From IMG/VR virus record IMGVR_UViG_2537561930_000005: DNA of 36,611 nt; one strand, given 5' to 3'. This document shows positions 5,969 through 29,521 of this stretch, in pieces. This DNA comes from a virus. Its lineage: Duplodnaviria > Heunggongvirae > Uroviricota > Caudoviricetes. The notes beneath the pieces were generated by a model that saw only the letters and a program-made list of their open reading frames with translations, searched no databases and was not told the DNA's origin. Position 1 is the stretch's first letter, and each line of letters begins with the position of its first letter. Made by a program: the position numbers and the translations under genes.

Positions 5969-5972
5969 ATTT

Positions 5973-10994: not shown

Positions 10995-11016
10995 ACTGTA
11001 ATCATAAATGATCTTC

Positions 11017-11032
11017 TTATAGCTGGCTATAA
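11017..11032. promoter_or_regulatory. Operator OR copy A, TTATAGCTGGCTATAA
   Basis: Near-perfect 16-bp palindrome in the cB-cro divergent intergenic region. Confidence 0.65.
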
Positions 11033-11042
11033 AATTTATTTA

Positions 11043-11058
11043 TTATAGCTGGCTTTAA
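11043..11058. promoter_or_regulatory. Operator OR copy B, TTATAGCTGGCTTTAA
   Basis: Second copy 26 bp centre-to-centre from copy A; TATAAT-like -10 at 11074-11079 just before the cro ATG. Confidence 0.6.
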
Positions 11059-11085
11059 TTATTGTTTATTGTTTATAATAACAAC

Positions 11086-11307
11086 ATGAAACCAGAAGAA
11101 CTTATTCGCCACTTTGGCAGTGTTGAAAAAGCAGCGGCAGGGGTAGGTGTAACACCCGGAGCTGTTTACCAATGGTTAACCGCTGGAGAGATTCCTTCAT
11201 TGCGGCAAAGCGATATTGAAGTTCGTACTGCTTACAAGCTGAAGAGTGACTTTACAACTCGGCGGGTAAAGCAGTCGATTAAGGAGAGTCGTAAGCGTGG
11301 AGCTTGA
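11086..11307 (+). CDS. cro: Cro-like repressor (HTH), 73 aa
   Basis: HTH FGSVEKAAAGVGVTPGAVYQWL; divergent from cB. Possibly leaderless, as the -10 lies immediately upstream. Start codon uncertain. Confidence 0.6.
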   Translation: MKPEELIRHFGSVEKAAAGVGVTPGAVYQWLTAGEIPSLRQSDIEVRTAYKLKSDFTTRRVKQSIKESRKRGA

Positions 11308-12007
11308 GTATATACGCAGCTGCGTCTCTACGGCATTGGCTGATGTTCATTATCGCCAGCGTGGCATTCTGGAGGTCCAGCTTGAGCAGATGCGTCTCGG
11401 TAGATCAGGACGGTTTAACAATAAACCAGTCCGGTCAATCAGTGTGGGGGATGATAACTCATACGAAGTGTCCGTTCCCGCTGAGCCGGTTAGATTCCAC
11501 CAGGGGAAAACATTTAAACAATCATCAATGTTGCTCACTGATATTGATTTTCAGAGCGCCAGCTGGCGCAGGGCTATTTGTCAGTTGAATAACGAGGAAT
11601 CAGCCTGGCTTTATTATTGCTACGGATGCAAGCCTGACTACAACAATGATGTGATTGTTTGTCAGTGGTTATGGCTTGATTTTCTGGTTGCTCATTCGGG
11701 GGGCGGCTTTAAAAAAATGAAGGCCTCCACGAAAAAAGCCATGCGGAAATTGATTTATTACGCGGCACAGCAGGTTAAATCAGAACTTACGTGTGCTGAG
11801 GCAGTTGATGAGAGAGAACAGGACAGGCATCTGAGTTTTCTACTGAATATATCTATTGATAGCTGGAGACAAGATTATAAAGAACGCTGGCTTTTAATTA
11901 AGTCGCGATGTCTGAGCTTAAATCGAACCGCATTATTAAATGCGGCGGAGAAGCGCAGTGAAATCATCAAACGCCATCGGGCAGGAAGTGCCATTCTGCC
12001 TTTGTAA
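11297..12007 (+). CDS. Putative late-gene regulator (Q-like antiterminator?), 236 aa
   Basis: GTG start with RBS AAGGAGAG, overlapping the cro stop. Position matches N15 Q by recollection only; no diagnostic motif verified. Confidence 0.35.
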   Translation: MELEYIRSCVSTALADVHYRQRGILEVQLEQMRLGRSGRFNNKPVRSISVGDDNSYEVSVPAEPVRFHQGKTFKQSSMLLTDIDFQSASWRRAICQLNNEESAWLYYCYGCKPDYNNDVIVCQWLWLDFLVAHSGGGFKKMKASTKKAMRKLIYYAAQQVKSELTCAEAVDEREQDRHLSFLLNISIDSWRQDYKERWLLIKSRCLSLNRTALLNAAEKRSEIIKRHRAGSAILPL

Positions 12008-12260
12008 ACAAGTTATGTTCAGGAAACCGTCGAAGCCAGAATTAAGGTATTCGGGGGTAAGAAATGAATATGTCATCTGGTGTCCAACTTGCGGTTACAG
12101 GACACGACCCGATAGTAATAAGCAGTCTGTAATTGCCGATTGGTATTTATCAAATCAGCCAGGTAATAAGCATATAGAAAATCTTTGGATTAAGCGTTAT
12201 CTGGAAATTAGAGAGGGTGCGACCACGGTCGCACAAGAAAATGAAAATAACGCCATTTAA
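11940..12260 (+). CDS. Small zinc-ribbon protein (CxC...CPTCG), possibly Lar-like
   Basis: Cys pairs CLC and CPTCGY. The ATG at 11940 overlaps the Q-like gene; alternative start at 12015. Confidence 0.3.
   Translation: MRRRSAVKSSNAIGQEVPFCLCKQVMFRKPSKPELRYSGVRNEYVIWCPTCGYRTRPDSNKQSVIADWYLSNQPGNKHIENLWIKRYLEIREGATTVAQENENNAI
12218..12233. other. sopC-like partition site copy 2 (TGCGACCACGGTCGCA)
   Basis: Exact repeat of the 16-mer at 9775; lies within the 3' end of the zinc-ribbon ORF. Confidence 0.6.
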
Positions 12261-12444
12261 ACAGGGGCCGATGACGCATGATGAGGCAGAGCGTCTTTCA
12301 GATACTTATCGGCGGCGTGGTAAGAAAGTTCTGGTTGTTCGTTCTGATTTTTTAGGTGATGGATATTGCGTTTATGTTCATTTACCTGAATCAGAAAGAG
12401 CACCAAAACCATCCAGAACATATCAACAGAAGTTTTGGGCATAG
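12241..12444 (+). CDS. Hypothetical small protein (start uncertain: 12241 or 12271)
   Basis: ORF only; no recognised domain. Confidence 0.3.
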   Translation: MKITPFKQGPMTHDEAERLSDTYRRRGKKVLVVRSDFLGDGYCVYVHLPESERAPKPSRTYQQKFWA

Positions 12445-12467
12445 ATAAACATTGAGGAGAATTATTC

Positions 12468-13067
12468 GTGACTAATCAGATAATTTACGACAGGAAACGG
12501 TCTGATGTAATGATTGACCTTGAAACAATGGGTACTAATACATGTGCTCCAATTGTTTCTATCGGGGCAGTGTTTTTTTCTCCTGAAAGTGAGGAATTAG
12601 GTGCCACTTTTTATGTACCAGTGAATCTCAGAAGCTCGATGTTAAATGGTGGTGTTGCCGATGGTGATACCATTTTATGGTGGTTGCGGCAGAGCAAGGA
12701 AGCCAGAGCCGCAATTTGTACTAATGATGCCCTTGATATTAATGATGCACTTTTTGAATTATCACACTTTATTACTTGCCATGCTTGTAATTTAAAAACA
12801 TTGAAAGTATGGGGAAATGGAGCAACGTTCGATAATGTAATTTTACGCGGCGCTTATGAGCGCGTTGGCTTATCCTGTCCGTGGGAATATTTTAATGATC
12901 AGGATGTTCGAACAATCGTTAATCTTGGTCAGTTTATTGGTTTTAATCCTAAAAAAGATATGCCATTTGATGGCGAACGACACAATGCCCTGGCTGATGC
13001 TATTCATCAGGCTAAATATGTATCTGCAATTTTCTCCCGTCTTGTAAAAGGGCAAGGAGAATCGTAA
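12468..13067 (+). CDS. DnaQ-like 3'-5' exonuclease (DEDDh), 199 aa
   Basis: GTG start with RBS GAGGAG. Motifs MIDLETMG (Exo I D-x-E) and HNALADA (Exo III H-x4-D). Confidence 0.65.
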   Translation: MTNQIIYDRKRSDVMIDLETMGTNTCAPIVSIGAVFFSPESEELGATFYVPVNLRSSMLNGGVADGDTILWWLRQSKEARAAICTNDALDINDALFELSHFITCHACNLKTLKVWGNGATFDNVILRGAYERVGLSCPWEYFNDQDVRTIVNLGQFIGFNPKKDMPFDGERHNALADAIHQAKYVSAIFSRLVKGQGES

Positions 13068-13486
13068 TGGCAAAGGCTTTTACACCAGAACAGAGGGAAG
13101 AACTGAATAAACAAATTGTGGAACTCGTGCGCCTGAATGGACGAGGAACGGTTAGGCAACTTGCGGATGAAACTGGTATTAGCCGGTGTGCTGTTAGTCG
13201 TTTATCAAGAGAGCTTGCTGCCAGTGGTGATTTGTATATCTCTGGCTCCGGGATATTTCTGTCTGCACAAGCACGCAAGGACTGGCAAAACGCCCGTAAA
13301 AAACTATCAAGAGTAAAGCCGAAGAAATCGGTAGTGGTTGATCCAGACCTTATCTGGTCATTACCTGACGGAGAAATACGTCGCTACGACAGGCGCCTGA
13401 ACATGATTTGTCACGATTGTCGGAAGAGCGAAGTTATGCAGCGTGTGTTGGCGTTTTATCAGGGAAATTTTCAGGAGGTGGCGTAG
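13067..13486 (+). CDS. Winged-HTH DNA-binding protein, 139 aa
   Basis: Segment TVRQLADETGISRCAVSRLSREL resembles an HTH. ATG overlaps the upstream stop (TAATG). Confidence 0.45.
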   Translation: MAKAFTPEQREELNKQIVELVRLNGRGTVRQLADETGISRCAVSRLSRELAASGDLYISGSGIFLSAQARKDWQNARKKLSRVKPKKSVVVDPDLIWSLPDGEIRRYDRRLNMICHDCRKSEVMQRVLAFYQGNFQEVA

Positions 13487-13776
13487 TGAATATCGACACC
13501 ACGATAACGATCGATATGGCCCTAAATACCGGTCTGGCACTTCTCGGTTGGTTTTACATCATGTTCAGTGCGGGGAAGTGGGCGGCCTCTGTTTTTCTAA
13601 AGCAGTGGGGAAAGCGCCGCAAACAGGAAAAACGCCAGAAAGCGTTGGAGGCGTTCTATGACGCATTTGAACTTGGCCGCATTGAACCAGGTACAACAGC
13701 CAGGATAGCGACAAAAGGCGACCTGATGATAGTGATGTTCCGACAGGAGAGAGCAGAGAAAGGGGGATCAGCATGA
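13486..13776 (+). CDS. Small membrane protein (~96 aa)
   Basis: GTG at 13486 with RBS AGGAGG 7 nt upstream. Hydrophobic helix LALLGWFYIMF followed by a basic tail. Confidence 0.4.
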   Translation: MNIDTTITIDMALNTGLALLGWFYIMFSAGKWAASVFLKQWGKRRKQEKRQKALEAFYDAFELGRIEPGTTARIATKGDLMIVMFRQERAEKGGSA

Positions 13777-14432
13777 AATTTTCCAAATTTTCTGAGTTGG
13801 TGAATCGTATTTTGTCCAACAACCACAGCCATCGTCGCGATATGGATGTAACAATCGTTGTTCATTCGCCTGGCAGCATTGGTTCAACACCTTCAGTTGA
13901 GGTTCAGTCAATTCACGCTGGTTTTGATTGGGATTCCGGGAAAGTGCTTATTTTCCCAACACAGCCACTGACCACGCTAACACCAGAACAGATTACTGAT
14001 ATTACTGATAGTGTGCGCAAAGGTCAGTCTTGGCACGCATATCAGGAATATAAAAAGCATAAAGAGCAGTTGGAAAAATTGTCGATTGAGTTGGAATCAG
14101 CCAAAAATCACATAGCAGAACTGGAAGCCAAACCTGTAAGCCAAACTTACAAGTTAACTTTTGAGCAATGGCTGGAACAGCAGCATGACAAAATTGATGT
14201 TGATTGTGGATGTGTAAGTACAGAAATGCTTATGCACTGGATAAGGGTCGCGTATGAGGCTGGCAACTCTCCGGTAACTCCGGATGGTCATATTCAGTTT
14301 TCTGTTTCACTTCCTGCAGCATGTGGTGGAGATAAATATTTTATTGATGGTGTATTTCAACCTTTGAGATATGAGCGTGACTGTGAAAAAGCGGTTGTGG
14401 CCGCTGGCGGTGTAGTTAATTGGGTTAAGTAA
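13773..14432 (+). CDS. Hypothetical protein with central coiled coil, 219 aa
   Basis: ATG overlaps the upstream stop (ATGA) with RBS AGGGGGA. No recognised domain. Confidence 0.5.
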   Translation: MKFSKFSELVNRILSNNHSHRRDMDVTIVVHSPGSIGSTPSVEVQSIHAGFDWDSGKVLIFPTQPLTTLTPEQITDITDSVRKGQSWHAYQEYKKHKEQLEKLSIELESAKNHIAELEAKPVSQTYKLTFEQWLEQQHDKIDVDCGCVSTEMLMHWIRVAYEAGNSPVTPDGHIQFSVSLPAACGGDKYFIDGVFQPLRYERDCEKAVVAAGGVVNWVK

Positions 14433-14447
14433 TTTTCAGGAGGATTT

Positions 14448-14774
14448 ATGGCGCTGACAGCTGCAGAACGGCAAAGGAGACGCAGGGAACGGTTGAAGAA
14501 GGAAGGCACATCAAGACGGGACTGGATTCTGGAACCTGACGAGTTACGTATGTTGGGGGAAATTTGTGTATTGCGTAGACCAGGGCGAGTTCCATATTCA
14601 GAGAACGAAGTCATCGGACTGCTGATCAGGAAAAACTATAAGGAGTTGCAGAAACAGCTATCTACTACTTGTCCGCGATGTGGTCAAAGAATGCCTGTTT
14701 CAGAATGCATTTTTGATGGTGAAGGCTCATGCCACCTTACAACCACGAGGCTGAAACTTGCGCTCAAAGTGTGA
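14448..14774 (+). CDS. Hypothetical basic protein with C-terminal zinc ribbon (CPRCG...C..C), 108 aa
   Basis: RBS AGGAGG; Arg-rich N-terminus; Cys cluster. Confidence 0.45.
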   Translation: MALTAAERQRRRRERLKKEGTSRRDWILEPDELRMLGEICVLRRPGRVPYSENEVIGLLIRKNYKELQKQLSTTCPRCGQRMPVSECIFDGEGSCHLTTTRLKLALKV

Positions 14775-14792
14775 CTGGTCACGGAGGGGTAA

Positions 14793-14948
14793 ATGGACAA
14801 AAAGGCATTGCTTTTTGAAATGATACGAAAACGGAGCGAAAAGAGCTTTTCTGATGGTGGTGATGGGCTTTTGGAAGTGGTTGGGCGAGGCGCAGGAAGG
14901 GAACATAAGTATCGGACTACAAAGATATTTAACCAGTTAATCCATTGA
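14793..14948 (+). CDS. Hypothetical small protein (51 aa)
   Basis: Hand-translated ORF not in the supplied track. Strong RBS GGAGGGG 5 nt upstream of the ATG. Confidence 0.3.
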   Translation: MDKKALLFEMIRKRSEKSFSDGGDGLLEVVGRGAGREHKYRTTKIFNQLIH

Positions 14949-14965
14949 AAGCTGGCTATAAAATT
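14945..14965. promoter_or_regulatory. Third copy of the cB operator motif (AGCTGGCTATAAAATTT shared with OR copy A)
   Basis: 17-nt exact match to 11021-11037, in an AT-rich region upstream of the gene at 15017. Confidence 0.5.
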
Positions 14966-15016
14966 TGAGTTTTACCCTGTAATTTTATACAGTATCAAAT
15001 AACCTTTTTTAATTAA

Positions 15017-15235
15017 ATGGTATTAGATTCAATGACTGAAGCACCTGTATCAACTCTTGAAGAACTCGGATCAAACCTAAAAGACATCGACGCCGTTTTG
15101 GATCTGGTTAGCGTTGCTCTGGCTTCTCCAGAAGCCAGCTTGCATCTTGGCGAGATTTCACGACTTGTTAGTATGTCGCGGGAGATAGCTCAGAATTGCC
15201 AACAAGTTATTGCTGTTGAGAGTTTACATCATTGA
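15017..15235 (+). CDS. Hypothetical small acidic protein (72 aa)
   Basis: ORF downstream of the operator-like site; start uncertain. Confidence 0.35.
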   Translation: MVLDSMTEAPVSTLEELGSNLKDIDAVLDLVSVALASPEASLHLGEISRLVSMSREIAQNCQQVIAVESLHH

Positions 15236-15278
15236 TACACACCCCGCCCTTCCGGACGGGGTAGCGAAAAGGGTCTAA

Positions 15279-15566
15279 TCAATAGACGGCATTAATATTA
15301 ATCGTTGCACCGCATGCTTGGGCATATTTTGATAAAGTTTTCATGCTTGCCCCTAAAGGATTGCTTTCCAGGCGGCTGATAGCTGACGGGCGCAATCCCA
15401 TTCGTTCAGCCAGAGCTGACTTCGTTAAACCTGCTCTTTCCCTCATTTCGTATAACATTTCGACCATCTCCAGCTCTTTATCGGCCTCTTCATATCCTTT
15501 GATGGCTTCTGGAGTGTTGAGAAGTTTTTCTTTTACTTCGTTAAACGGGATGCCTTTCGCTTTCAT
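15279..15566 (-). CDS. HTH_XRE antitoxin (HigA-like), 95 aa
   Basis: HTH LTKSALAERMGLRPSAISRLE. ATG overlaps the toxin stop (TGATG); RBS AAGGAG lies within the toxin 3' end. Confidence 0.7.
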   Translation of the reverse strand: MKAKGIPFNEVKEKLLNTPEAIKGYEEADKELEMVEMLYEMRERAGLTKSALAERMGLRPSAISRLESNPLGASMKTLSKYAQACGATININAVY

Positions 15567-15877
15567 CAGTTCATCTCCTTCAGGCGAGTTCTGGCGATTT
15601 CGATAGCCTTCACCGGTGTTTTCTGTGTCTTTTTTACAAATGCATGCAATAGATAAATTTCGTTACCAGTCGCGTAGGCGTACAGCGTTCTTGCGATGTT
15701 TTTATCCCCTACTCGTAGTTCAAAAAGCCCTCCACCTATTACACGGCTATGGGGCATCTTCAGTTTGTTGCCTTCTTTCTCCAGTCGCTCAATTAATCTG
15801 GTCATGCGACCTCGCAAATCATCTGGTAGTTCAAGCAGTTCATCCAGTGCTGCAGGGTGGGTTATCACGTTAAACAT
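15566..15877 (-). CDS. RelE/ParE-superfamily toxin, HigB / Gp49-like, 103 aa
   Basis: Size, toxin-first order and sequence character match the phage Gp49-like (HigB-type) killer family, which was named after N15 gp49. Confidence 0.65.
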   Translation of the reverse strand: MFNVITHPAALDELLELPDDLRGRMTRLIERLEKEGNKLKMPHSRVIGGGLFELRVGDKNIARTLYAYATGNEIYLLHAFVKKTQKTPVKAIEIARTRLKEMN

Positions 15878-15935
15878 ATTATAGCCTCCATATCCATAAA
15901 ATACACCAAAACAAGAAAACAGCGCAAATTAAAAA

Positions 15936-15953
15936 TTTCACTAAAAAGTGAAA
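15936..15953. promoter_or_regulatory. Palindrome TTTCACT-AAAA-AGTGAAA, putative toxin-antitoxin operator
   Basis: Perfect 7-bp inverted arms ~60-80 bp upstream of the toxin start, in the divergent intergenic region. Confidence 0.45.
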
Positions 15954-16042
15954 AATAACACTGGATGTGTTCGTTTGGCAGAGTTACAGTTCGTGTCATT
16001 GAGGGGCAATAACCCACTAACTATATGAATTTGGAGGATATT

Positions 16043-16264
16043 ATGAATTATCAAGGTAACGAAAAAATGCGCGACGACGTTGCGGAGATAGCTAACGAAC
16101 TGTATGAGTTGTGGCAGAAGGTTGAACGTTTCGAAAAGGAATATGGTTTCAACAGTACCAACCTAGCAGACCGACTGGCTGGTCGCTTAGTTGGGACTAT
16201 GGGGCCAAAACTGGCTGAGTTGAACCGCTTTATGGCTGATGTTGATTTCCAGTTTCAAGATTGA
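16043..16264 (+). CDS. Hypothetical small protein (~73 aa)
   Basis: ATG at 16043 with RBS GGAGGA; an upstream in-frame ATG at 16025 is also possible. Confidence 0.4.
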   Translation: MNYQGNEKMRDDVAEIANELYELWQKVERFEKEYGFNSTNLADRLAGRLVGTMGPKLAELNRFMADVDFQFQD

Positions 16265-16680: not shown

Positions 16681-16772
16681 GGTCAACCCATGCCAGAGCT
16701 ATAGGCTGAACCTAAAGCCCACCCGCGATGCGCATCGCCGGGTTAGCTTACCCAGGCAAAAAAATAATAGCT

Positions 16773-17849
16773 ATGTTCAAAACCACTAATATTCATGGCG
16801 CGCAACTCGTTTGCGCAGATTCTCTGCAATTTATCAAAACCATCCCTGATAACTCGGTCAATTTGATTGCAACAGACCCACCATACTTCGGCGTAAAGGC
16901 TAACGCATGGGATAACCAGTGGGATAGCGATGCTGACTTTTTGGGGTGGATTGACGAATTTTTGGCAGAATTTTGGCGGATATTGGCCCCTAATGGCAGC
17001 CTGTATATGTTTACCGGCTCTCGCCTTGCGTCAAAAATTGAATTATTAACTCGCGACCGTTTCAATGTTCTGAACCATATCATTTGGGCTAAACCCAGTG
17101 GTATGTGGCGCGGTTGTCATAAAGAAAGTTTAAGGGCTTATTTTCCTGCTACTGAAAGAATATTATTTGCAGAGCATTACGGCGCGTCAGGTTATGCGAA
17201 AGGTCAGTCAGGTTATGCTTCAAAATGTGCAGATTTAAGAAAAAATATTTTTTCTCCACTAATTGATGCTTTTTCGCTGGCTCGCCGTCAGTTAGATATA
17301 TCAGCCGCAGACATTAATTCAGCGACAGGAAAGCAGATGTGTTCACACTGGTTTTCTTATTCGCAGTGGCGGCTTCCATCATTAATTGATTTTAATAAAC
17401 TATGCGAATTATTTCGCAGGAAGGCAGATTCACTCGGTGTCCAGTGTCCATATCCTTTTAATGTTGATTATTCAGAACATGAAAAGCGTTATAGCGATCT
17501 GAAATTACATTATGAGGAAGTAAAGAAGCAGTATGATGATTTGAAGGTGCAGTATGAAAATTTACGCCGTCCATTTCATGTTACTGCTGATGTACCTTAT
17601 ACCGATGTATGGGAGTTTCCTCCTGTGCAATATTATCCTGGCAAGCACCCATGTGAAAAACCTGCAGCGATGATGGAACATATTATAAAGAGTAGTTCAC
17701 GCCCCGGAGATATCGTTGCCGATTTCTTTATGGGATCAGGCTCAACTATTAAAGCTGCGCTGAAGTTAGGACGTCAGGCAATAGGTATTGAGATTGAGAG
17801 CGAACGTTATCTTCAGACAGTTGATGAAGTGAAAAAGTTATTTGAGTAA
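16773..17849 (+). CDS. Orphan DNA methyltransferase (N6-adenine/N4-cytosine class, DPPY motif), ~358 aa
   Basis: Motif IV DPPY followed later by motif I FFMGSGST. No adjacent restriction endonuclease gene. Start uncertain (16728 or 16773). Confidence 0.75.
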   Translation: MFKTTNIHGAQLVCADSLQFIKTIPDNSVNLIATDPPYFGVKANAWDNQWDSDADFLGWIDEFLAEFWRILAPNGSLYMFTGSRLASKIELLTRDRFNVLNHIIWAKPSGMWRGCHKESLRAYFPATERILFAEHYGASGYAKGQSGYASKCADLRKNIFSPLIDAFSLARRQLDISAADINSATGKQMCSHWFSYSQWRLPSLIDFNKLCELFRRKADSLGVQCPYPFNVDYSEHEKRYSDLKLHYEEVKKQYDDLKVQYENLRRPFHVTADVPYTDVWEFPPVQYYPGKHPCEKPAAMMEHIIKSSSRPGDIVADFFMGSGSTIKAALKLGRQAIGIEIESERYLQTVDEVKKLFE

Positions 17850-17944
17850 CTGGAGAATATATTCCCCTGCCGTTTTTGGTAGGGGTTATTTTTGCCATAT
17901 AGTTTCCAAGCCGAAACCTCAGCAACTATTGCGAGGTAAGAGAT

Positions 17945-18217
17945 ATGAAGATGGATGAACGATACAGCAGTGCATCTTATGGTAGCGCTGGTCTTGCTGC
18001 GTTCTTTGCCAGCCTGTCATTGCAGGATTGGGGCTTCATTATCGGTGTCGCGTTCAGCATTATCCTCGGTGTGCTTACATACCGGCTCAATAAACGCGAG
18101 CAGATGAAGCGCACGAAGATATTGCAGGACATATTGGATAAAACTGATGCCAATAATATTTCTGCCACGGCGATGGTTATTGGTGAATTGGGAAAGAGAG
18201 CACCGAAGGAAATATGA
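17945..18217 (+). CDS. Holin with dual-start motif (MKM...), 90 aa
   Basis: RBS GAGGTAA; Met-Lys-Met start; hydrophobic helix [18 protein letters not shown]; immediately upstream of the endolysin. Confidence 0.7.
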
Positions 18218-18714
18218 TGCAGTCATCATTACGCAAAGCTGTCGCAACTGCTATTGGTGGCGGGGCTATTGCCATAGCATCTGTGCTCATCTCTGGTCCG
18301 AGCGGCAACGATGGTCTGGAAGGTGTGAAATATAACCCCTACAAAGACATCGTTGGTGTATGGACTGTATGTTACGGGCATACAGGAAAAGACATTATGC
18401 TCGGTAAAACGTATACCGAAGCAGAATGCAAAGCTCTCCTGAATAAAGACCTTGCTACTGTCGCCATACAAATTAACCCGTACATCAAAGTCGATATACC
18501 GGAAACAACGCGCGGTGCTCTTTACTCGTTCGTTTACAACGTGGGTGCAGGCAATTTCAGAACATCGACACTTCTTCGCAAAATCAACCAGGGCGATATC
18601 AAAGGTGCATGTGATCAACTACGTCGCTGGACATATGCTGGCGGTAAGCAATGGAAAGGCCTGATGACTCGTCGTGAGATTGAGCGTGAAGTCTGTTTGT
18701 GGGGGCAACAATGA
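18214..18714 (+). CDS. SAR endolysin (T4-lysozyme-like, GH24), 166 aa
   Basis: N-terminal Gly/Ala-rich signal-anchor-release segment ([20 protein letters not shown]) and catalytic E-x8-D-x5-T triad ([17 protein letters not shown]). Confidence 0.8.
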
Positions 18715-19178
18715 GCAGAGTAACCGCAATTATCTCCGCTCTGGTTATCTGCATCATCGTCTGCCTGTCGTGGGCGGTCAATCATTACCGTGATAACGCC
18801 ATCGTCTACAAAGAACAGCGAGATAAAAAAGTCAGTGAGCTGAAGCAGGCGACCGCCACCATTACTGACATGCAGCAGCGCCAGCGTTCTGCTGATGCAC
18901 TCGATGCTAAATACACGAAGGAGTTAGCTTATGCGAAAGCTGAAAATGATGCTCTTCGGCGCAAGCTTGATAATGGTGGTCGGGTGTTCGTCAAAGGAAA
19001 ATGCCCTGTGCCATCCTCAGCCGAAACCTCCAGCGCCTCCGGCATGGGCAATGATGCCACCGTCGAACTCTCTCCAGTTGCTGGACGAAACGTTCTCGGT
19101 ATCCGGGACGGAATTATCCGCGACCAAACAGCACTGAGAACGCTTCAGGAATACATCAGGACGCAATGCCTTCGATGA
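18711..19178 (+). CDS. Rz: Rz i-spanin, ~155 aa
   Basis: ATG overlaps the endolysin stop (ATGA); N-terminal TM helix and coiled coil; contains an embedded Rz1. Confidence 0.75.
18931..19137 (+). CDS. Rz1: Rz1 o-spanin lipoprotein embedded in Rz (+1 frame)
   Basis: Lipobox IMVVGC followed by a Pro-rich mature region ([16 protein letters not shown]), wholly within Rz. Confidence 0.7.
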
Positions 19179-19351
19179 TAGCGATAATTTTACTCATCAT
19201 CCTTCACATCTGGCTCTGTAGACAGGGTGGTGCTCACTTCTGGAGTGAATCCAGATTAAACATCTCATTGCTGATGCTTGATATTGAGCATTTTGCGCGC
19301 GGTAAGGGGCTGCGTTGAGATAAGAGCCAGTCATTACAAATACCAGGATTT

Positions 19352-19376
19352 AGCCTCGCATTCGCGGGGCTTTTTA
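19352..19376 (+). terminator. Rho-independent terminator after the lysis cassette
   Basis: Stem AGCCTCGC / GCGGGGCT (one G-U pair), loop ATTC, then T5. A second hairpin follows at 19388-19413. Confidence 0.5.
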
Positions 19377-19669
19377 TTGCCATTACAAAAGCCACTTCCT
19401 ACAGAGTGGCTTTGATAATGGCTTATACCCTACACGGGATAACTTAACTGATATCCCTTTTAAAGGATAAAGGTATTCAAGCCTGACACATCATGCGCTG
19501 TATCGTCGCCGTATTCCCGTATTAACAGAGACCGTAGCCCGACGGGGAACTCCTTCTGCGCGAGTGTGCGGGAATAATCAAAAACGATGCACACCGGGGT
19601 TACCGGGTACACATATTTCATCATGCCAGCGAGTCCGGTTCTGGCACGGAAAAAACCGGACGTTATGAT

Positions 19670-20080
19670 TTAGTGCGGAAATATTTGTGTAGTGTTCTGA
19701 ATGTTCTCAGTAAAGAGTAATGAATTATCAAAGGTATAGTAATACCTTTTGTTTTCGTGGATATTTGTAATCCATCTGAAAACCCCTGCTGTAGCAAGAT
19801 TTTTCCTGTATTCGTAAAATGATAACTCTCCTGATTTGAATCCTTTTAAGGTGGCTTCTATAAGGCATTTATTTTTTGAAAATCTTACATTTACAACCTT
19901 ACCCTGTCCTTTTATTAAAACCGTATTATCGTTTTCAAGAACAAGATGAATATTCTCTGTGGCTAAATAGTAAATGTAATGTGAGACATTGTGACGTTTT
20001 AGTTCAGAATAAAACCAGTGATAGTTTAAATTATTTCGCACTTTATCGAATATTTGTTTAAAAATGGCAACCTGAGCCAT
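19670..20080 (-). CDS. DUF1398-like protein (resembles E. coli prophage YbcV), ~136 aa
   Basis: Sequence MAQVAIFK...RWITNIHE...[13 protein letters not shown] matches my recollection of DLP12 YbcV. Low GC, moron-like. ATG at 20080 has a GGAAGG RBS. Confidence 0.5.
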
Positions 20081-20137
20081 TGTAGTACCTTCCATGTGAT
20101 ATGAGGGGGCGTAGTCTGCACGATTATCTAAATTGCT

Positions 20138-20371
20138 TCAATCTGGTCTGACCTGTTTTCTGAGCAATTCAGTAATGTCACTCTTTTCTTTGTTTGCTTC
20201 AGGCGAAACTCTTTTTTCTGAGCACAGTCTCCGGCGGCAGGCTTCAATGACCCAGGCTGAGAAATTCCCGGACCCTTTTTGAACAAGAGCGATGTTAATT
20301 TGTTCAATCATTTGGTTAGGAAAGCGGATGTTGCGGGTTGTTGTTCTGCGGGTTCTGTTCTTCGTTGACAT
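20138..20371 (-). CDS. DUF3950-like small protein (resembles YlcI), 77 aa
   Basis: Sequence MSTKNRTRRTTTRNIRFPNQMIEQINIAL...SAWVIEACRRRL matches my recollection of prophage YlcI; ribbon-helix-helix-like. Confidence 0.5.
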   Translation of the reverse strand: MSTKNRTRRTTTRNIRFPNQMIEQINIALVQKGSGNFSAWVIEACRRRLCSEKRVSPEANKEKSDITELLRKQVRPD

Positions 20372-20539
20372 GAGGTTGCCCTGTATTCAGTGTCGCTGAT
20401 TTGTATTGTCTGAAGTTGTTTTTACGTTAAGTTGATGCAGATCAATTAATACGATACCTGCGTCATAATTGATTATTTGACGTGGTTTGATGGCGTAGAT
20501 GCACGTTGTGACATGTAGATGATAATTATTATCATTTTG

Positions 20540-20750
20540 CGGGTCCTTTCCGGCGATCCGACAGGTTACGGGGCGGCGACCTCGCGGGTTTTCGCTATTT
20601 ATGAAAATTTTCCGGTTTAAGGCGTTTCCGTTCTTCTTCGTCATAACTTAATGTTTTTATTTAAAATACCCTCTGAAAAGAAAGGAAACGACAGGTGCTG
20701 AAAACGAGCTTTTGGGCCTCTGTCGTTTCCTTTCTCTGTTTTTGGCCGTG
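20540..20750. other. cos: Lambda-type cos site (cosQ-cosN-cosB); cohesive end GGGCGGCGACCT at 20570-20581
   Basis: The run ...CCGACAGGTTACG|GGGCGGCGACCTCGCGGGTTTTCGCTATTTATGAAAATTTTCCGG... matches the lambda genome ends as I recall them, immediately upstream of Nu1. Confidence 0.85.
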
Positions 20751-20759
20751 GAATGAACA

Positions 20760-21279
20760 ATGGAAGTCAACAAAAAGCAGCTGGCTGACATTTTCGGTGC
20801 GAGTATCCGTACCATTCAGAACTGGCAGGAACAGGGAATGCCCGTTCTGCGAGGCGGTGGCAAGGGTAATGAGGTGCTTTATGACTCTGCCGCCGTTATA
20901 AGATGGTATGCCGAAAGGGATGCTGAAATTGAGAACGAAAAGCTGCGCCGGGAAGTTGAAGAACTGCGGCAGGCCAGCGAGACAGATCTCCAGCCAGGGA
21001 CTATTGAGTACGAACGCCATCGACTTACGCGTGCGCAGGCCGACGCACAGGAACTGAAGAATGCCAGAGACTCCGCTGAAGTGGTGGAAACCGCATTCTG
21101 TACTTTCGTGTTGTCGCGGATCGCAGGTGAAATTGCCAGTATTCTCGACGGGCTCCCCCTGTCGGTGCAGCGGCGTTTTCCGGAACTGGAAAACCGACAT
21201 GTTGATTTCCTGAAACGGGATATCATCAAAGCCATGAACAAAGCAGCCGCGCTGGATGAACTGATACCGGGGTTGCTGA

Positions 21280-21305
<26 letters not shown>
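20760..21305 (+). CDS. nu1: Terminase small subunit Nu1 (181 aa)
   Basis: N-terminus MEVNKKQLADIFGASIRTIQNWQEQGMPV... and length 181 aa as in lambda Nu1. Confidence 0.95.
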
Positions 21306-24986
<3,681 letters not shown>

Positions 24987-25006
<20 letters not shown>

Positions 25007-26306
25007 TCTCCCGCATATTGCCAGCATGGCCTTTAATGAGCCGCTGATGCTTGAACCCGCCTATGCGCGGGTTTTCTTTTGTGCGCTTGCAGGCCAGCTT
25101 GGGATCAGCCGCCTGACGGATGCGGTGTCCGGCGACAGCCTGACTGCCCAGGAGGCACTCGCGACGCTGGCATTATCCGGTGATGATGACGGACCACGAC
25201 AGGCCCGCAGTTATCAGGTCATGAACGGCATCGCCGTGCTGCCGGTGTCCGGCACGCTGGTCAGCCGGACGCGGGCGCTGCAGCCGTACTCGGGGATGAC
25301 CGGTTACAACGGCATTATCGCCCGTCTGCAACAGGCTGCCAGCGACCCAATGGTGGACGGCATTCTGCTCGATATGGACACGCCAGGCGGAATGGTGGCG
25401 GGAGCATTTGACTGCGCTGACATCATCGCCCGTGTGCGTGACATAAAGCCGGTATGGGCGCTGGCCAATGACATGAACTGCAGTGCAGGGCAGCTGCTTG
25501 CCAGCGCCGCCTCCCGGCGTCTGGTCACGCAGACCGCCCGGACAGGCTCCATCGGCGTCATGATGGCTCACAGTAATTACGGTGCTGCGCTGGAGAAACA
25601 GGGCGTGGAAATCACGCTGATTTACAGCGGCAGCCATAAGGTGGATGGCAACCCCTACAGCCATCTTCCGGATGACGTCCGGGAGACACTGCAGTCCCGG
25701 ATGGACGCAACCCGCCGGATGTTTGCGCAGAAGGTGTCGGCATATACCGGCCTGTCCGTGCAGGCTGTGCTGGATACCGAGGCTGCAGTGTACAGCGGTC
25801 AGGAGGCCATTGATGCCGGACTGGCTGATGAACTTGTCAACAGCACCGATGCGATCACCGTCATGCGTGATGCACTGGATGCACGTAAATCCCGTCTCTC
25901 AGGAGGGCGAATGACCAAAGAGACTCAATCAACAACTGTTTCAGCCACTGCTTCGCAGGCTGACGTTACTGACGTGGTGCCAGCGACGGAGGGCGAAAAC
26001 GCCAGCGCGGCGCAGCCGGACGTGAACGCGCAGATCACCGCAGCGGTTGCGGCAGAAAACAGCCGCATTATGGGGATCCTCAACTGTGAGGAGGCTCACG
26101 GACGCGAAGAACAGGCACGCGTGCTGGCAGAAACCCCCGGAATGACCGTGGAAACGGCCTGCCGCATTCTGGCCGCAGCACCACAGAGTGCACAGGCGCG
26201 CAGCGACACTGCGCTGGATCGTCTGATGCAGGGGGCACCGGCACCGCTGGCTGCAGGTAACCCGGCATCTGATGCCGTTAACGATTTGCTGAACACACCA
26301 GTGTAA
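24987..26306 (+). CDS. C: Head maturation protease C (439 aa, GTG start)
   Basis: GTG at 24987 gives MTAELRNLPHIASMAFNEPLMLEP... and 439 aa, as in lambda C; overlaps B by 20 nt. Confidence 0.9.
25701..26306 (+). CDS. nu3: Scaffolding protein Nu3 (in-frame internal start within C, 201 aa)
   Basis: Internal ATG at 25701 in the C frame, sharing its stop; this is the known lambda nested C/Nu3 arrangement. Confidence 0.75.
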   Translation: MDATRRMFAQKVSAYTGLSVQAVLDTEAAVYSGQEAIDAGLADELVNSTDAITVMRDALDARKSRLSGGRMTKETQSTTVSATASQADVTDVVPATEGENASAAQPDVNAQITAAVAAENSRIMGILNCEEAHGREEQARVLAETPGMTVETACRILAAAPQSAQARSDTALDRLMQGAPAPLAAGNPASDAVNDLLNTPV

Positions 26307-26315
26307 GGGATGTTT

Positions 26316-26648
26316 ATGACGAGCAAAGAAACCTTTACCCATTACCAGCCGCTGGGCAACAGTGACCCGGCTCATACCGCAACCGCGCCCGGCGTATTGA
26401 GCAAGAAAACGCCAGCAATGACCCCGCTGATGCTGAACACCTCCACCCGTAAGCTGGTTGCGTGGGATGGCACCACCGACGGTGCTGCCGTTGGCATTCT
26501 TGCGGTTGCTGCTGACCAGACCAGCACCACACTAACGTTCTACAAGTCCGGCACGTTCCGTTATGAGGATGTGCTCTGGCCGGAGGCTGCCAGCGACGAG
26601 ACGAAAAAACGGACCGCGTTTGCCGGAACGGCAATCAGCATCGTTTAA
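26316..26648 (+). CDS. D: Head decoration protein D (110 aa)
   Basis: [12 protein letters not shown]...; length as in lambda gpD. Confidence 0.95.
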
Positions 26649-26703
26649 CCTGACCCTTCATCACTAAAGGCCGCCTGTGCGGCTTTTTTTACGGGATTTT
26701 TTT

Positions 26704-27729
26704 ATGTCGATGTACACAACCGCCCAACTGCTGGCGGCAAATGAGCAGAAATTTAAGTTTGATCCGCTGTTTCTGCGTCTCTTTTTCCGTGAGAGCTATC
26801 CCTTCACTACGGAGAAAGTCTATCTCTCACAAATTCCGGGACTGGTAAACATGGCGCTGTACGTTTCGCCGATTGTTTCCGGTGAGGTTATCCGCTCCCG
26901 TGGCGGCTCCACCTCTGAATTTACACCGGGATATGTCAAGCCGAAGCATGAGGTGAATCCGCAGATGACCCTGCGTCGCCTGCCGGATGAAGATCCGCAG
27001 AATCTGGCGGACCCGGCTTACCGCCGCCGTCGCATCATCATGCAGAACATGCGTGACGAAGAGCTGGCCATTGCTCAGGTCGAAGAGATGCAGGCAGTTT
27101 CTGCCGTGCTCAAGGGCAAATACACCATGACCGGTGAAGCCTTCGATCCGGTTGAGGTGGATATGGGCCGCAGTGCGGCGAACAACATCACGCAGTCCGG
27201 CGTCACGGAGTGGAGCAAGCGTGACAAGTCCACGTATGACCCGACCGACGATATCGAAGCCTACGCGCTGAACGCCAGCGGTGTGGTGAATATCATCGTG
27301 TTTGACCCGAAAGGCTGGGCGCTGTTCCGTTCCTTCAAAGCCGTCAGGGAGAAGCTGGATACCCGTCGCGGCTCTCATTCCGAGCTGGAGACAGCGGTGA
27401 AAGACCTGGGCAAAGCGGTGTCCTATAAGGGAATGTATGGCGATGTGGCCATCGTCGTGTATTCCGGACAGTACGTGGAAAACGGCGTCAAAAAGAACTT
27501 CCTGCCGGACAACACGATGGTGCTGGGGAACACTCAGGCTCGCGGTCTGCGCACCTATGGCTGCATTCAGGATGCGGACGCACAGCGCGAAGGCATTAAC
27601 GCCTCTGCCCGTTACCCGAAAAACTGGGTGACCACCGGCGATCCGGCGCGTGAGTTCACCATGATTCAGTCAGCACCGCTGATGCTGCTGGCTGACCCTG
27701 ATGAGTTCGTGTCCGTTCAACTGGCGTAA
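26704..27729 (+). CDS. E: Major capsid protein E (341 aa)
   Basis: MSMYTTAQLLAANEQKF...; 341 aa as in lambda gpE. Confidence 0.95.
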   Translation: MSMYTTAQLLAANEQKFKFDPLFLRLFFRESYPFTTEKVYLSQIPGLVNMALYVSPIVSGEVIRSRGGSTSEFTPGYVKPKHEVNPQMTLRRLPDEDPQNLADPAYRRRRIIMQNMRDEELAIAQVEEMQAVSAVLKGKYTMTGEAFDPVEVDMGRSAANNITQSGVTEWSKRDKSTYDPTDDIEAYALNASGVVNIIVFDPKGWALFRSFKAVREKLDTRRGSHSELETAVKDLGKAVSYKGMYGDVAIVVYSGQYVENGVKKNFLPDNTMVLGNTQARGLRTYGCIQDADAQREGINASARYPKNWVTTGDPAREFTMIQSAPLMLLADPDEFVSVQLA

Positions 27730-27731
27730 TC

Positions 27732-27749
27732 ATGGCCCTTCGGGGCCAT
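27732..27749 (+). promoter_or_regulatory. Intercistronic hairpin with UUCG tetraloop (ATGGCCC-TTCG-GGGCCAT)
   Basis: Direct read, between the E stop and the FI RBS, followed by a T-rich run. Confidence 0.5.
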
Positions 27750-27770
27750 TTTCTCTCTGTGGAGGAGTTC

Positions 27771-28167
27771 ATGACGAAAGATGAACTGATTGCCCGTCTT
27801 CAGGAGCTGGGTGAGCAACTGAACCGCGATGTCAGCCTGACGGGAACGAAAGAAGAACTGGCGCTTCGTGTGGCAGAGCTGGAAGAAGAGCTTGATGACA
27901 CGGATGAAACTGCCGGTCAGGACACCCCTCTCAGCCGGGAAAATGTGCTGACCGGGCATGAAAATGAGGTGGTATCAGCGCAGCCGGATACCGTGACAGG
28001 ATACGGCTGAACTAGTCACGGTTGTGGCACTGGTGACGCTGCATACTGATGCACTTCACGCCACGCGGGATGAGGCTGTGGCATTTGTGCTGCCGGGAAC
28101 GGCGTTTCGTGTCTCTGCCGGTGTGGCAGCTGAAATGACAGAGCGCGGCCTGGCCAGAATGCAATAA
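27771..28167 (+). pseudogene. FI: FI (DNA-packaging/head assembly) disrupted by an apparent frameshift
   Basis: FI frame from ATG 27771 stops at TGA 28008-28010 after 79 codons. A different frame (open from 27997, stop at 28165) encodes ...DTAELVTVVALVTLHTDALHATRDEAVAFVLPGTAFRVSAGVAAEMTERGLARMQ, the expected FI C-terminus, with no start of its own. Confidence 0.6.
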
Positions 28168-28178
28168 CGGGAGGCGCT

Positions 28179-28532
28179 GTGGCTGATTTCGATAACCTGT
28201 TCGATGCTGCCATTGCCTGCGCCGATGAAACGATACGCGGGTACATGGGAACGTCAGCCACCATGACATCCGGTGAGCAGTCCGGTGCTGTGATACGTGG
28301 TGTTTTTGATGACCCTGAAAATATCAGCTATGCCGGACAGGGCGTGCGCGTTGAAGGCTCCAGCCCGTCCCTGTTTGTCCGGACTGATGATGTGCGGCAG
28401 CTGCGGCGTGGAGACACGCTGACCATCGGTGAGGAAAATTTCTGGGTAGATCGGGTTTCGCCGGATGATGGCGGAAGCTGTCATCTCTGGCTTGGACGGG
28501 GCGTACCGCCTGCCGTTAACCGTCGCCGCTGA
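28179..28532 (+). CDS. FII: Head-tail connector FII (117 aa)
   Basis: MADFDNLFDAAIA...; RBS GGGAGG; length as in lambda FII. Confidence 0.95.
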   Translation: MADFDNLFDAAIACADETIRGYMGTSATMTSGEQSGAVIRGVFDDPENISYAGQGVRVEGSSPSLFVRTDDVRQLRRGDTLTIGEENFWVDRVSPDDGGSCHLWLGRGVPPAVNRRR

Positions 28533-28543
28533 AAGGGGGATGT

Positions 28544-29122
28544 ATGGCCATAAAAGGTCTTGAGCAGGCCGTTGAAAACCTCAGCCGTATCAGCAGAACG
28601 GCGGTGCCCGGTGCCGCCGCAATGGCCATTAACCGCGTTGCGTCATCCGCGATATCGCAGTCGGTGGCACAGGTTGCCCGTGAGACAAAGGTACGCCGGA
28701 AACTGGTAAAGGAAAGGGCCAGGCTGAAAAGGGCCACGGTCAAAAATCCGCAGGCCAGAATCAAGGTTAACCGGGGGGATTTGCCCGTAATCAGGCTGGG
28801 TAACGCGCGGGTTGTCCTGTCCCGACGCAGGCGTCGTAAAAAGGGGCAGCGTTCAGCCCTGAAAGGTGGCGGCAGTGTGCTTGTGGTGGGAAACCGTCGT
28901 ATTCCCGGCGCGTTTATTCAGCAACTGAAAAATGGCCGGTGGCATGTCATGCAGCGTGTGGCCGGGAAAAACCGTTACCCCATTGATGTGGTGAAAATCC
29001 CGATGGCGGTGCCGCTGACCACGGCGTTTAAACAGAATATTGAACGGATACGGCGTGAACGTCTTCCGAAAGAGCTGGGCTATGCGCTGCAGCATCAACT
29101 GAGAATGGTAATAAAGCGATGA
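28544..29122 (+). CDS. Z: Tail completion protein Z (192 aa)
   Basis: Length and order as in lambda. Confidence 0.9.
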   Translation: MAIKGLEQAVENLSRISRTAVPGAAAMAINRVASSAISQSVAQVARETKVRRKLVKERARLKRATVKNPQARIKVNRGDLPVIRLGNARVVLSRRRRRKKGQRSALKGGGSVLVVGNRRIPGAFIQQLKNGRWHVMQRVAGKNRYPIDVVKIPMAVPLTTAFKQNIERIRRERLPKELGYALQHQLRMVIKR

Positions 29123-29514: not shown

Positions 29515-29521
29515 GGACGCT

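Follow-up and report, generated by a model that had tools for sequence, protein, structure and literature searches.

A low-GC, opposite-strand block beside cos in a phage-plasmid with lambda structural genes is probably a Qin-type version of the usual accessory cassette of lambda-type phages

Between the last lysis gene and the cos site of the 36,611-nt virus record IMGVR_UViG_2537561930_000005 (the window, the whole stretch of DNA analyzed here) lie two small minus-strand genes, one of them exceptionally low in GC. Is this block foreign cargo brought in at a recombination junction, as the original prediction had it, or an ordinary part of a lambda-type late region? The replicon is a protelomerase (N15-like) phage-plasmid with a lambda head-tail module (98%), and from position 20571 to its end at 36611 the window matches lambda 1-16049 at 98.2% identity. 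Based on the comparisons described below, positions 19171-20519 are very probably the usual non-essential accessory slot of lambda-type phages, holding a Qin-type version of a long-known cassette. The features of the region are listed in Table 1.

Table 1. Features of the window from the end of the lysis cassette to the small terminase gene
Feature	Position	Strand	Remarks
Rz spanin gene	18699..19178	+	Pfam Phage_lysis, 97 bits; last lysis-cassette gene, left flank of the interval
Rz1	18931-19137		embedded in Rz; Pfam Rz1, 75 bits
50-codon ORF (orf50)	19166..19318	+	overlaps the Rz stop by 13 nt; hydrophobic N terminus
Intrinsic-terminator-like hairpin	19352..19379	+	stem of 8 bp (6 G-C), then TTTTTATT; the fold prediction pairs it as well
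Inverted repeat	19379..19422	either	18-nt arms, 89% complementary; hairpin on both strands
Conserved non-coding linker	19380..19601		common to PhiR46_1, O157 prophages with DUF1441 terminase, and most telomere phage-plasmids
Segment homologous to the lambda/DLP12 bor-p78 intergenic region	19494..19632		bor absent
Stem-loop	19633..19661	-	8 nt past the DUF1398 stop; without U-tract
DUF1398 gene	19670..20080	-	136 aa; upstream alternative ATG at 20095
DUF3950 YlcI/YnfO gene	20138..20371	-	77 aa, 97% identical to Qin YnfO
Palindrome TGGTCTGACC	20144..20153		64 nt upstream of the DUF1398 start
Region from ylcI start to cosQ	20372..20540		nearly identical in lambda, DLP12, Qin, and the window
GGGTCCT heptamer	20541-20547	+	identical to lambda
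cosN 12-nt cohesive end GGGCGGCGACCT	20571-20582	+	identical to lambda, differs in N15
cosB region and Nu1 terminase small-subunit gene	20583..21305	+	Nu1 at 20760-21305

Both minus-strand ORFs score above the Pfam cut-offs for the families that had been named for them, DUF1398 and DUF3950 (YlcI). The product of the first, a member of the YbcV/YdfO/lambda p78 family, matches PF07166 with 147 bits (cut-off 22) over profile positions 1-119 of 119, the YdfO structure 2HH8 in the PDB with E = 1.4e-69 over residues 1-140, and PHROG 413 with E = 2.7e-87. Translation of this gene probably starts at the second ATG (20080) and not at 20095, because a GGAAGG Shine-Dalgarno sequence lies 7 nt upstream of the former and the K-12 and PGAP models have 136 residues. 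The protein represents a third allele, 75-77% identical to YdfO, YbcV, and lambda p78. The YlcI/YnfO ORF matches PF13132 with 72.8 bits (cut-off 25) and NCBIfam NF041551 with 35.2 bits (cut-off 30); in alignments its N-terminal 50 residues are nearly invariant and its C-terminal tail is mosaic.

The lambda-like cosQ expected beyond these genes was also found. All three hallmarks of a lambda-type cos site are present, namely the cohesive end GGGCGGCGACCT, the cosQ heptamer upstream of it, and cosB with Nu1 downstream. We take GGGTCCT to be the cosQ core, and its lambda coordinates are likewise presumed.

Genes of the same families occupy this place in lambda and in two cryptic prophages of Escherichia coli K-12. 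The closest likeness is to Qin (nohA - cos - ynfO - ydfO), where gene order, orientation, and the 57-nt gap between the two genes are as in the window, with a contiguous match of 93% over 19632-21288 and complete identity beginning a little upstream of the DUF1398 start and extending across the ynfO tail, TGGTCTGACC included. Qin differs in its YdfO, which is only 75% identical to the DUF1398 allele of the window, in having gnsB, ynfN, and cspI cargo beyond ydfO in place of the orf50/terminator/linker spacer, and in its lysis cassette. In lambda the order is Rz, bor (minus), p78/DUF1398 (minus), p79/YbcW (plus), YlcI-like ORF (minus), cosQ, cosN, and Nu1. Lambda is 83% identical to the window over 19494-20154 and 95-97% identical from 20209 onward, a boundary that falls within the 3' end of the ylcI-like gene. 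In contrast to the window, lambda has bor between Rz and p78, ybcW (p79, plus strand, ∼610 nt) between p78 and the YlcI-like ORF, and a YlcI-like protein with a different and shorter tail (64 aa), and it lacks the segment 19179-19493 together with orf50. DLP12 has the lambda-type order (rzpD - borD - ybcV - ybcW - ylcI - nohD), with the same families beside a lambda-type cos and a Nu1 homolog; its YbcV and YlcI are 77 and 87% identical to the window proteins. Finding the same contiguous arrangement in lambda had been named in advance as evidence against foreign cargo, and lambda largely shows it: the order and orientation of p78, the YlcI-like ORF, and cosQ agree, and GC is equally low.

Composition gives a similar answer. 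Of the two genes, both predicted to be AT-rich, the DUF1398 gene is so (GC 0.314), but the ylcI-like gene is not (0.449). In a scan of 400-nt segments (mean 0.504, S.D. 0.071), the DUF1398 gene holds the lowest value of the 36.6 kb, about 2.7 S.D. below the mean and tied only with the telomere-proximal first kilobase; the neighboring lysis and terminase genes have GC contents of 0.49 and 0.54. A GC content of 31-33% is, however, common to the DUF1398 alleles of lambda (0.326), DLP12, and Qin, so low GC is a property of the gene family and not evidence of recent import. The first reading of strand switch, composition, and ancestry as marks of foreign cargo is thus not supported, since lambda, DLP12, and Qin share the order and genes as well as the GC content.

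The proposal of a recombination junction fared better. The sister telomere phage PhiR46_1 is 96% identical to the window up to 19170 and again from 20520, break points that lie within ∼20 nt of the predicted boundaries, and between them it carries three other plus-strand ORFs and neither DUF1398 nor ylcI. PhiR46_1 and N15 are of the window's replicon type (protelomerase, RepA, Q), and in both the stretch from the lysis genes to cos is likewise a slot for variable cargo. In N15 this slot holds different cargo, genes 56-59, all on the plus strand and including a cytosine methylase, without DUF1398 or ylcI and without similarity to the window over 17838-21078.

Lambdoid chromosomal prophages hold the interval at 99% identity, and only 3 plasmids in PLSDB cover at least 80% of it. 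Among 5426 complete E. coli genomes, 3951 (∼73%) contain the 939-nt module, and 2648 of those hold at least 80%. The exact arrangement occurs in strain CFSAN061771 (99.8% over the 491-nt spacer) and in phage Kati (99.1%), and the full arrangement is present in about half of 80 IMG/VR loci. Around cos, the lambda, Qin, and DLP12 haplotypes form a fine-scale patchwork. In crosses of lambda with DLP12 published in 2014, the region of homology comprised R, Rz, cos, nu1, and A, ybcV::kan served as a selectable marker with viable recombinants, and 10 of 19 junctions adjoined cos, making the interval a recombination hot spot (PMC3945230). Red/RecA homologous recombination exchanges exactly this interval, stimulated by a double-strand cut at cos. 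The same crosses showed ybcV to be dispensable; lytic growth does not need the DUF1398 gene.

By the moron definition of Juhala et al. (2000), the cassette shows presence or absence between equal flanks, since no copy stands between Rz and cos in PhiR46_1 or N15. Distinct composition applies to the DUF1398 gene and not to ylcI. As for signals of its own, there are sigma-70 matches at 8 of 12 positions, a post-stop hairpin without a U-tract, and a palindrome that is PdhR-bound in the K-12 paralogs. Evidence for expression from the repressed prophage is indirect, in the form of K-12 transcripts of ybcV and ydfO (PMC7660256, PMC4077768). Recent import of a moron from a donor of low GC, with lysogenic-conversion cargo peculiar to this phage, would account for the coincidence here of the whole-window GC minimum with a strand switch and for the polymorphism seen in PhiR46_1 and N15, which is typical of morons. 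We nevertheless consider such an import quite unlikely: the same genes stand at the same GC and place in lambda, DLP12, and Qin and occur in 73% of E. coli genomes, the closest donors, 99% identical, are ordinary lambdoid prophages, and no conversion phenotype is known. Because the same genes lie at the same spot in lambda, in two K-12 cryptic prophages, and in most E. coli, the interval is an ordinary, swap-prone region that has already been described, and its arrangement of small non-essential genes beside cos is already known.

Upstream of the two genes, the spacer from the Rz stop (19178) to the DUF1398 stop (19670) measures 491 nt, matching the ∼490 bp first estimated. It was expected to be structured and non-coding, and the first of these descriptions held: folding z scores are -4.0 and -4.2 for the two strands, and 0 of 100 shuffles folded as well. 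The second did not, as orf50 occupies part of the first 150 nt. This ORF covers the full length of PHROG 11822 (all 50 profile positions, E = 1.8e-36), corresponds to PGAP WP_001139678/9, which is also annotated in O157 prophages having another terminase, and is intact in 85 of 85 related loci, among which 7 synonymous and 8 non-synonymous distinct changes were counted. The ORF moves together with the lysis cassette and probably encodes a small membrane protein. The supposed lysis terminator is not found at the Rz stop; the first terminator-like site lies 175 nt further on.

The remainder of the spacer is a mosaic. Break points recur near 19379, 19493, and 19601 across the 80 IMG/VR loci, the first of them at the left edge of the inverted repeat. 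The linker that begins there is 92.8% identical to PhiR46_1, the O157 match stops at its right end (19601), and plasmid matches to the interval span query positions 202-420 only; we conclude that the linker serves as a substrate for homologous exchange. In the segment related to the bor-p78 intergenic region, the promoter annotated in HK629 (TGGACA-N15-TACAAT) is degenerate, reading CGGTCT ... TACGGC. An alignment with Qin shows one compensatory change in the stem-loop past the DUF1398 stop (T:A to C:G), and this element is possibly the 3' end or a stabilizer of a leftward transcript. A minus-strand 54-codon ORF at 19460-19624, annotated in Kati and PhiR46_1, is not considered a gene: Pfam and PHROG gave no match, six amino acid changes fall in 45 codons at 7% DNA divergence from PhiR46_1, and indels in lambda break its frame.

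The 350-nt structured spacer is highly unlikely to encode a regulatory RNA, such as a small RNA derived from what is left of the bor promoter region. Such an RNA would fit the fold (z near -4 on both strands) and the conservation of 19380-19601 in many unrelated contexts, but terminator-type hairpins account for the structure, the HK629 promoter hexamers are degenerate in the window, and lambda carries indels in this region. In addition, a search of Rfam yielded no family (best E-value 0.3, far below gathering scores), and the alignment displayed no convincing covariation.

What is known of expression and function comes largely from E. coli K-12 and lambda. The gene lambdap78 was scored as non-essential (PMC10695390), and ydfO is inducible in K-12 (PMC4077768). 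The level of ybcV mRNA is 10-fold lower in a pdhR mutant, PdhR sites have been mapped in K-12 at ybcV/ybcW and ynfO/ydfO, and the palindrome TGGTCTGACC lies inside these PdhR-bound sites (PMC7660256); this transcript evidence concerns K-12 paralogs that are 75-97% identical to the window proteins. In lambda, DLP12, and Qin the palindrome stands at an equal distance from the DUF1398 start. When the window was scanned with the PdhR consensus, matches were no more numerous than expected by chance, and the PdhR-like site at the palindrome agrees at 10 of 14 positions (4 mismatches), a score not above chance on its own. A promoter search for the DUF1398 and ylcI genes gave best sigma-70 matches of 8 of 12, none of good quality.

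An AF2 model of the DUF1398 protein built from a shallow alignment had a pLDDT of 46, too poor for reading an activity. Most sequences recovered in homolog searches were near-identical E. coli copies or lambda control reads rich in errors, and a taxonomic range derived from a scan of genome contigs was discarded because most non-enterobacterial matches were contamination by lambda control DNA. A second-hand claim that YdfO overexpression protects against oxidative stress was set aside, as it was not found in the main text of the paper cited.

Ribbon-helix-helix proteins begin with a beta-strand followed by two helices that a G-x-S/T/N turn connects. For YlcI, the predicted model contains helices at residues 19-32 and 37-54 (pLDDT ∼88) and no strand in the monomer. 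Searches of the PDB by sequence, profile, and Foldseek gave nothing significant; the top Foldseek matches were the ribbon-helix-helix proteins AtaR2 and HP0222 (E 6-9, non-significant). An hhalign comparison with Arc (sequence matched against PDB 1ARQ) gave E = 0.011 with a probability of only 3.7%, and placed the N-I-R-F-P strand on N-L-R-W-P of Arc in the expected register. Together, these results weakly suggest an Arc-like fold for YlcI. The ylcI gene continues to adjoin cos and the small terminase gene where other cargo replaces DUF1398, and it is also found beside a different terminase small-subunit protein.

A bolder proposal is that YlcI/YnfO is an Arc/Mnt-like DNA-binding protein with a real task at or near cos and that its pairing with DUF1398 forms a host-regulated (PdhR) accessory circuit. 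A task of this kind would explain both the near-invariant N terminus and the persistent position within ∼170 nt of cosQ; it might consist in setting leftward transcription across the packaging site or in tuning DUF1398 in the prophage. We regard the proposal as speculative and unlikely. If it were true, a PdhR circuit of ylcI and DUF1398 would be common to most E. coli lambdoid prophages.

The position of ylcI might also be read as membership of both genes in the packaging or head module, with YlcI binding near cosQ, for instance, or DUF1398 as a virion protein. PHROG 413 is labeled "head protein" and filed under "head and packaging," an old label in lambda is "envelope protein," ylcI stays by cos and the small terminase even when DUF1398 or that terminase subunit is another, and its N terminus hardly varies, nor do the 170 nt leading to cosQ. 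Against this, PhiR46_1, deposited as a complete genome, has cos/Nu1 at 96% and neither gene, lambda p78 is non-essential (PMC10695390), lambda ybcV::kan recombinants grow (PMC3945230), both genes are oriented against the late operon, and short distance alone predicts linkage to cos. These observations leave the packaging role with very little credibility.

The two ORFs lie in one frame with a single TGA between them, and a fused form of 233 aa exists in databases but is rare; as a Rosetta-stone fusion it was rejected, because the 761-member cluster is almost wholly unfused, with 136-aa or partial forms. A toxin-antitoxin or anti-phage pair, in which an antitoxin-like ribbon-helix-helix YlcI/YnfO is followed 57 nt on by a small DUF1398 effector, would draw on that shared frame and fused form, on the adjacent and co-oriented genes of the window and Qin, and on the weak ribbon-helix-helix signals of YlcI, but it is just as implausible as a packaging role, given that the adjacent, co-oriented operon of a type II system is not kept across relatives (in lambda and DLP12, ∼600 nt that include ybcW on the opposite strand separate the two), ylcI can be present where DUF1398 is missing, the fusion is rare in its cluster, PADLOC defense-system models gave no matches, and ybcV knockouts and ybcV::kan phages are viable (PMC3945230).

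On the reading we favor, in which the interval is the usual accessory slot of lambda-type phages, the cassette consists, in order, of orf50 coupled to Rz, back-to-back hairpins, the conserved linker, and the two leftward genes. The hairpins would stop transcription when Q is absent. The cassette may have entered the phage-plasmid by recombination with a chromosomal lambdoid prophage, with R-Rz and cos/Nu1 as the arms. Weak promoters belonging to DUF1398 and ylcI themselves would drive their leftward transcription, opposite to the late operon and independently of Q, and TGGTCTGACC upstream of DUF1398 would be a site for a host factor (PdhR), as in K-12. By analogy with Arc/Mnt proteins of the ribbon-helix-helix type, YlcI/YnfO is a candidate small DNA-binding regulator, and the DUF1398 protein is a putative cytoplasmic accessory factor that may aid the host under stress.

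The low-GC, opposite-strand block beside cos is, on the favored reading, a regular part of lambda-type late regions rather than something newly acquired. The comparison with PhiR46_1 cleanly documents a cassette swap in nature, its junctions lying at the Rz stop and ∼20 nt to the left of cosQ. Such a swap in a phage-plasmid that has adopted the lambda structural module fits the cos-stimulated recombination measured in the laboratory. With their presence in ∼73% of complete genomes, DUF1398 and YlcI/YnfO are among the most widespread uncharacterized prophage genes of E. coli.

The window carries a temperate phage with its genes in prophage order. Between the stop codon of Rz and the next long open reading frame (ORF) lie 491 nt, and two minus-strand ORFs follow. 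As predicted from the sequence alone, these encode DUF1398 and YlcI-type proteins; the DUF1398 ORF also matched the solved YdfO structure 2HH8 (E = 1.4e-69). Translation of this ORF most likely begins at the second ATG (20080), which is preceded by a good Shine-Dalgarno sequence and yields a protein of 136 aa, as in the K-12 and PGAP models. Both genes had been described as AT-rich, and this holds for DUF1398, which at 31.4% is the GC minimum of the 36.6 kb (400-nt windows; mean 50.4%, sd 7.1%), but not for the ylcI-like gene (44.9%). The expected lambda-like cos is present, including GGGTCCT, which we take to be the cosQ core. Based on the GC minimum, the spacer folding, and the gene and cos identities, the core of the original prediction holds, and the observation was essentially right.

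Coordinates of the features discussed (window positions)
Feature	Position	Strand	Remarks
Protelomerase (telN)	83-1984		Near window start
N15-type RepA	6157-10152	-	
CB-like repressor	10398-10994	-	
Q	11297-12007		
Rz	18699-19178		Last gene of lysis cassette; Rz1 embedded
50-codon ORF	19166-19318		Overlaps Rz stop; fills first 150 nt of spacer
First terminator-like hairpin after Rz	19352-19379		
DUF1398 ORF	19670-20095	-	Full-length; Pfam 147 bits (cut-off 22)
Palindrome TGGTCTGACC			64 nt upstream of DUF1398 start
DUF3950 YlcI/YnfO-family ORF	20138-20371	-	Pfam 72.8 bits (cut-off 25); NCBIfam 35.2 (30)
GGGTCCT	20541-20547		~170 nt beyond DUF3950 ORF
Lambda cohesive end GGGCGGCGACCT	20571-20582		Followed by cosB
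Nu1	20760-21305		

Rather than an integrating lambda-type prophage, the window is a protelomerase phage-plasmid resembling N15; the record appears to start at a telomere beside telN. N15 is syntenic with it and 72-77% identical in both flanks of the region discussed here, and no similarity to N15 was found over 17838-21078. The structural genes of N15 are only ~68-77% identical to those of the window; lambda 1-16049 (Nu1 to the start of J, the whole head-tail module) matched 20571-36611 at 98.2%, and the cohesive end is that of lambda, not N15. Closest to it, at 97%, are telomere phage-plasmids of E. coli and Shigella, among them PhiR46_1, YDC107_1, and many ~46-kb plasmids. The backbone of PhiR46_1, a sister phage, matched as far as 19170 and resumed at 20520; between these junctions it has three other plus-strand ORFs, lacks DUF1398 and ylcI, and shares only a conserved linker (19380-19601). 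The N15 slot contains genes 56-59. Because both slots hold other cargo, the interval 19179-20540, predicted to be a recombination junction, brackets a cassette swapped in this phage lineage relative to PhiR46_1; its ends fall at the Rz stop and ~20 nt to the left of cosQ. In PLSDB, coverage of the interval reached 80% or more in just 3 plasmids, and in most telomere plasmids the linker alone is present.

Elsewhere in the replicon, a segment absent from PhiR46_1 (3870-5686), probably inserted into the early region recently, carries an IS200/IS605-type TnpB gene (ORF 3919-5151, minus strand; Pfam OrfB_IS605 and Cas12f1-like TNB domain). At 15279-15877 (minus strand), a Gp49-family (HigB-like) ORF is directly followed by an HTH_3 ORF, the counterpart of N15 genes 49/48, annotated in N15 as a toxin-antitoxin pair. 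An N6/N4 DNA methyltransferase gene (16728-17849) closely precedes the holin gene and occupies the place of N15 gene 52, with 73% nucleotide identity.

The reading of the region as a foreign moron is not right, since lambda and the K-12 cryptic prophages DLP12 and Qin carry the same genes there. Finding the arrangement in lambda itself was to count against the original prediction; the order is largely present there, with bor and ybcW as extra genes (Rz, bor on the minus strand, p78 (DUF1398, minus), p79/YbcW (plus), a YlcI-like ORF (minus), cosQ, cosN, Nu1), and DLP12 has the lambda order. By blastn, lambda is 97.5% identical to the window from 20209 onward and 82.7% over 19494-20154, and its bor and ~610 nt with ybcW lack a counterpart. 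Qin has exactly the layout of the window, with ynfO and ydfO adjacent, beside nohA, and matched 19632-21288 contiguously at 93%. The YlcI-like protein shares 97% identity with YnfO of Qin; for DUF1398, the window has a third allele, whose product is 75-77% identical to YdfO, YbcV, and lambda p78. Since all four DUF1398 alleles have 31-33% GC, low GC is a trait of this gene family and not a sign of recent import. In the vicinity of cos, the window forms a fine-grained mosaic of lambda/Qin and DLP12 haplotypes. The lambda annotation (47042-47575; 1675-2208 of lambda locus L001) gives p78 177 aa through a 41-residue N-terminal extension from a GTG start, which seems spurious because the DLP12, Qin, and PGAP models begin at the MAQVAIFK methionine.

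The PHROG label "head protein" and the retention of ylcI beside cos even where DUF1398 is replaced suggest a packaging role for the two genes; against it stand lambda genetics, gene orientation, and PhiR46_1, which has the same cos and neither gene, so that neither is needed by such a phage. A search for evidence supporting the p78 product names "putative envelope protein" and "head protein" found none.

The spacer is structured as predicted, folding far more strongly than shuffled controls on both strands (z ~ -4). Its description as non-coding fails for the part filled by the 50-codon ORF, and no terminator-like hairpin lies at the Rz stop, where a lysis terminator had been placed. This ORF matched PHROG 11822 over its whole length, is annotated by PGAP in E. 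coli prophages (including O157 prophages with an unrelated terminase), and is intact in 85/85 related loci collected, among which the distinct changes number 7 synonymous and 8 non-synonymous. It probably encodes a small membrane protein and moves together with the lysis cassette. Break points recur at ~19379, 19493, and 19601, and in other genomes the pieces between them accompany either the lysis cassette or DUF1398. Nothing beyond terminator-type hairpins supports a regulatory RNA in the spacer.

We favour the reading that YlcI/YnfO may be a small DNA-binding protein with an Arc/Mnt-type ribbon-helix-helix fold. Its structural model has two confident helices, ribbon-helix-helix proteins were the top, non-significant Foldseek matches, and hhalign aligned N-I-R-F-P to N-L-R-W-P of Arc (E = 0.011, but probability 3.7%). 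The separation of the two genes in lambda and DLP12 and the occurrence of ylcI alone contradict a toxin-antitoxin or defence pair; the DUF1398 protein matched none of the defence and other families searched. The ylcI and DUF1398 genes share one frame (20080-20371, minus strand), parted by one TGA and 19 sense codons, and a fused 233-aa ylcI-DUF1398 protein (P0014) with TGG at the TGA position occurs, rarely, in databases.

Both genes would be read leftward from their own weak promoters; the best matches in promoter scans reached only 8/12. The palindrome TGGTCTGACC lies at the same distance from the DUF1398 start in lambda, DLP12, and Qin, and lambda and DLP12 homology stops just past it. The corresponding K-12 sites were recovered as targets of the host factor PdhR, and ybcV mRNA was down 10-fold in a K-12 pdhR mutant (PMC7660256); ydfO, too, can be strongly induced in that strain (PMC4077768). 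Taken alone, the palindrome did not exceed chance as a match to the PdhR consensus.

Of 5426 complete E. coli genomes, 3951 contain the 939-nt module (19632-20570), 2648 of these with at least 80% of its length. The full arrangement occurs in E. coli CFSAN061771 (99.8% over the 491-nt spacer), in phage Kati (99.1%), and in about half of the 80 IMG/VR loci recovered with the 50-codon ORF. Lambda control DNA turns up as a contaminant in many public assemblies from unrelated taxa (loci L018-L047; plasmid matches H112, H113, H115, and H120; proteins). It takes the form of ~3.5-kb contigs, possibly the nanopore control strand, or of 48,502-bp "plasmids". The short form occurs, for example, in Arcanobacterium hippocoleae ("plasmid unnamed1", 3566 bp), Staphylococcus aureus (CP113245, 3570 bp), and Xanthomonas arboricola (CP127227, 3560 bp), and the long form in Salmonella (NZ_CP082339, 48,502 bp). 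This makes DUF1398 and DUF3950 look more widely distributed among hosts than they are, and probably accounts for their mention in fungus and Arcanobacterium papers.

The arrangement, variability, and dispensability of the cassette are already known. De Paepe et al. measured lambda x DLP12 recombination across this very region (R, Rz, cos, nu1, and A) with the marker ybcV::kan; 10 of 19 junctions were directly next to cos, the recombinants were viable, and the terminase cut at cos stimulates left-side exchange (PMC3945230). In a CRISPRi survey, lambdap78 was scored as non-essential (PMC10695390). The DUF1398 and ylcI-like genes are shown to be accessory and oriented against the late operon, with their cassette exchanged by homologous recombination via conserved flanks.
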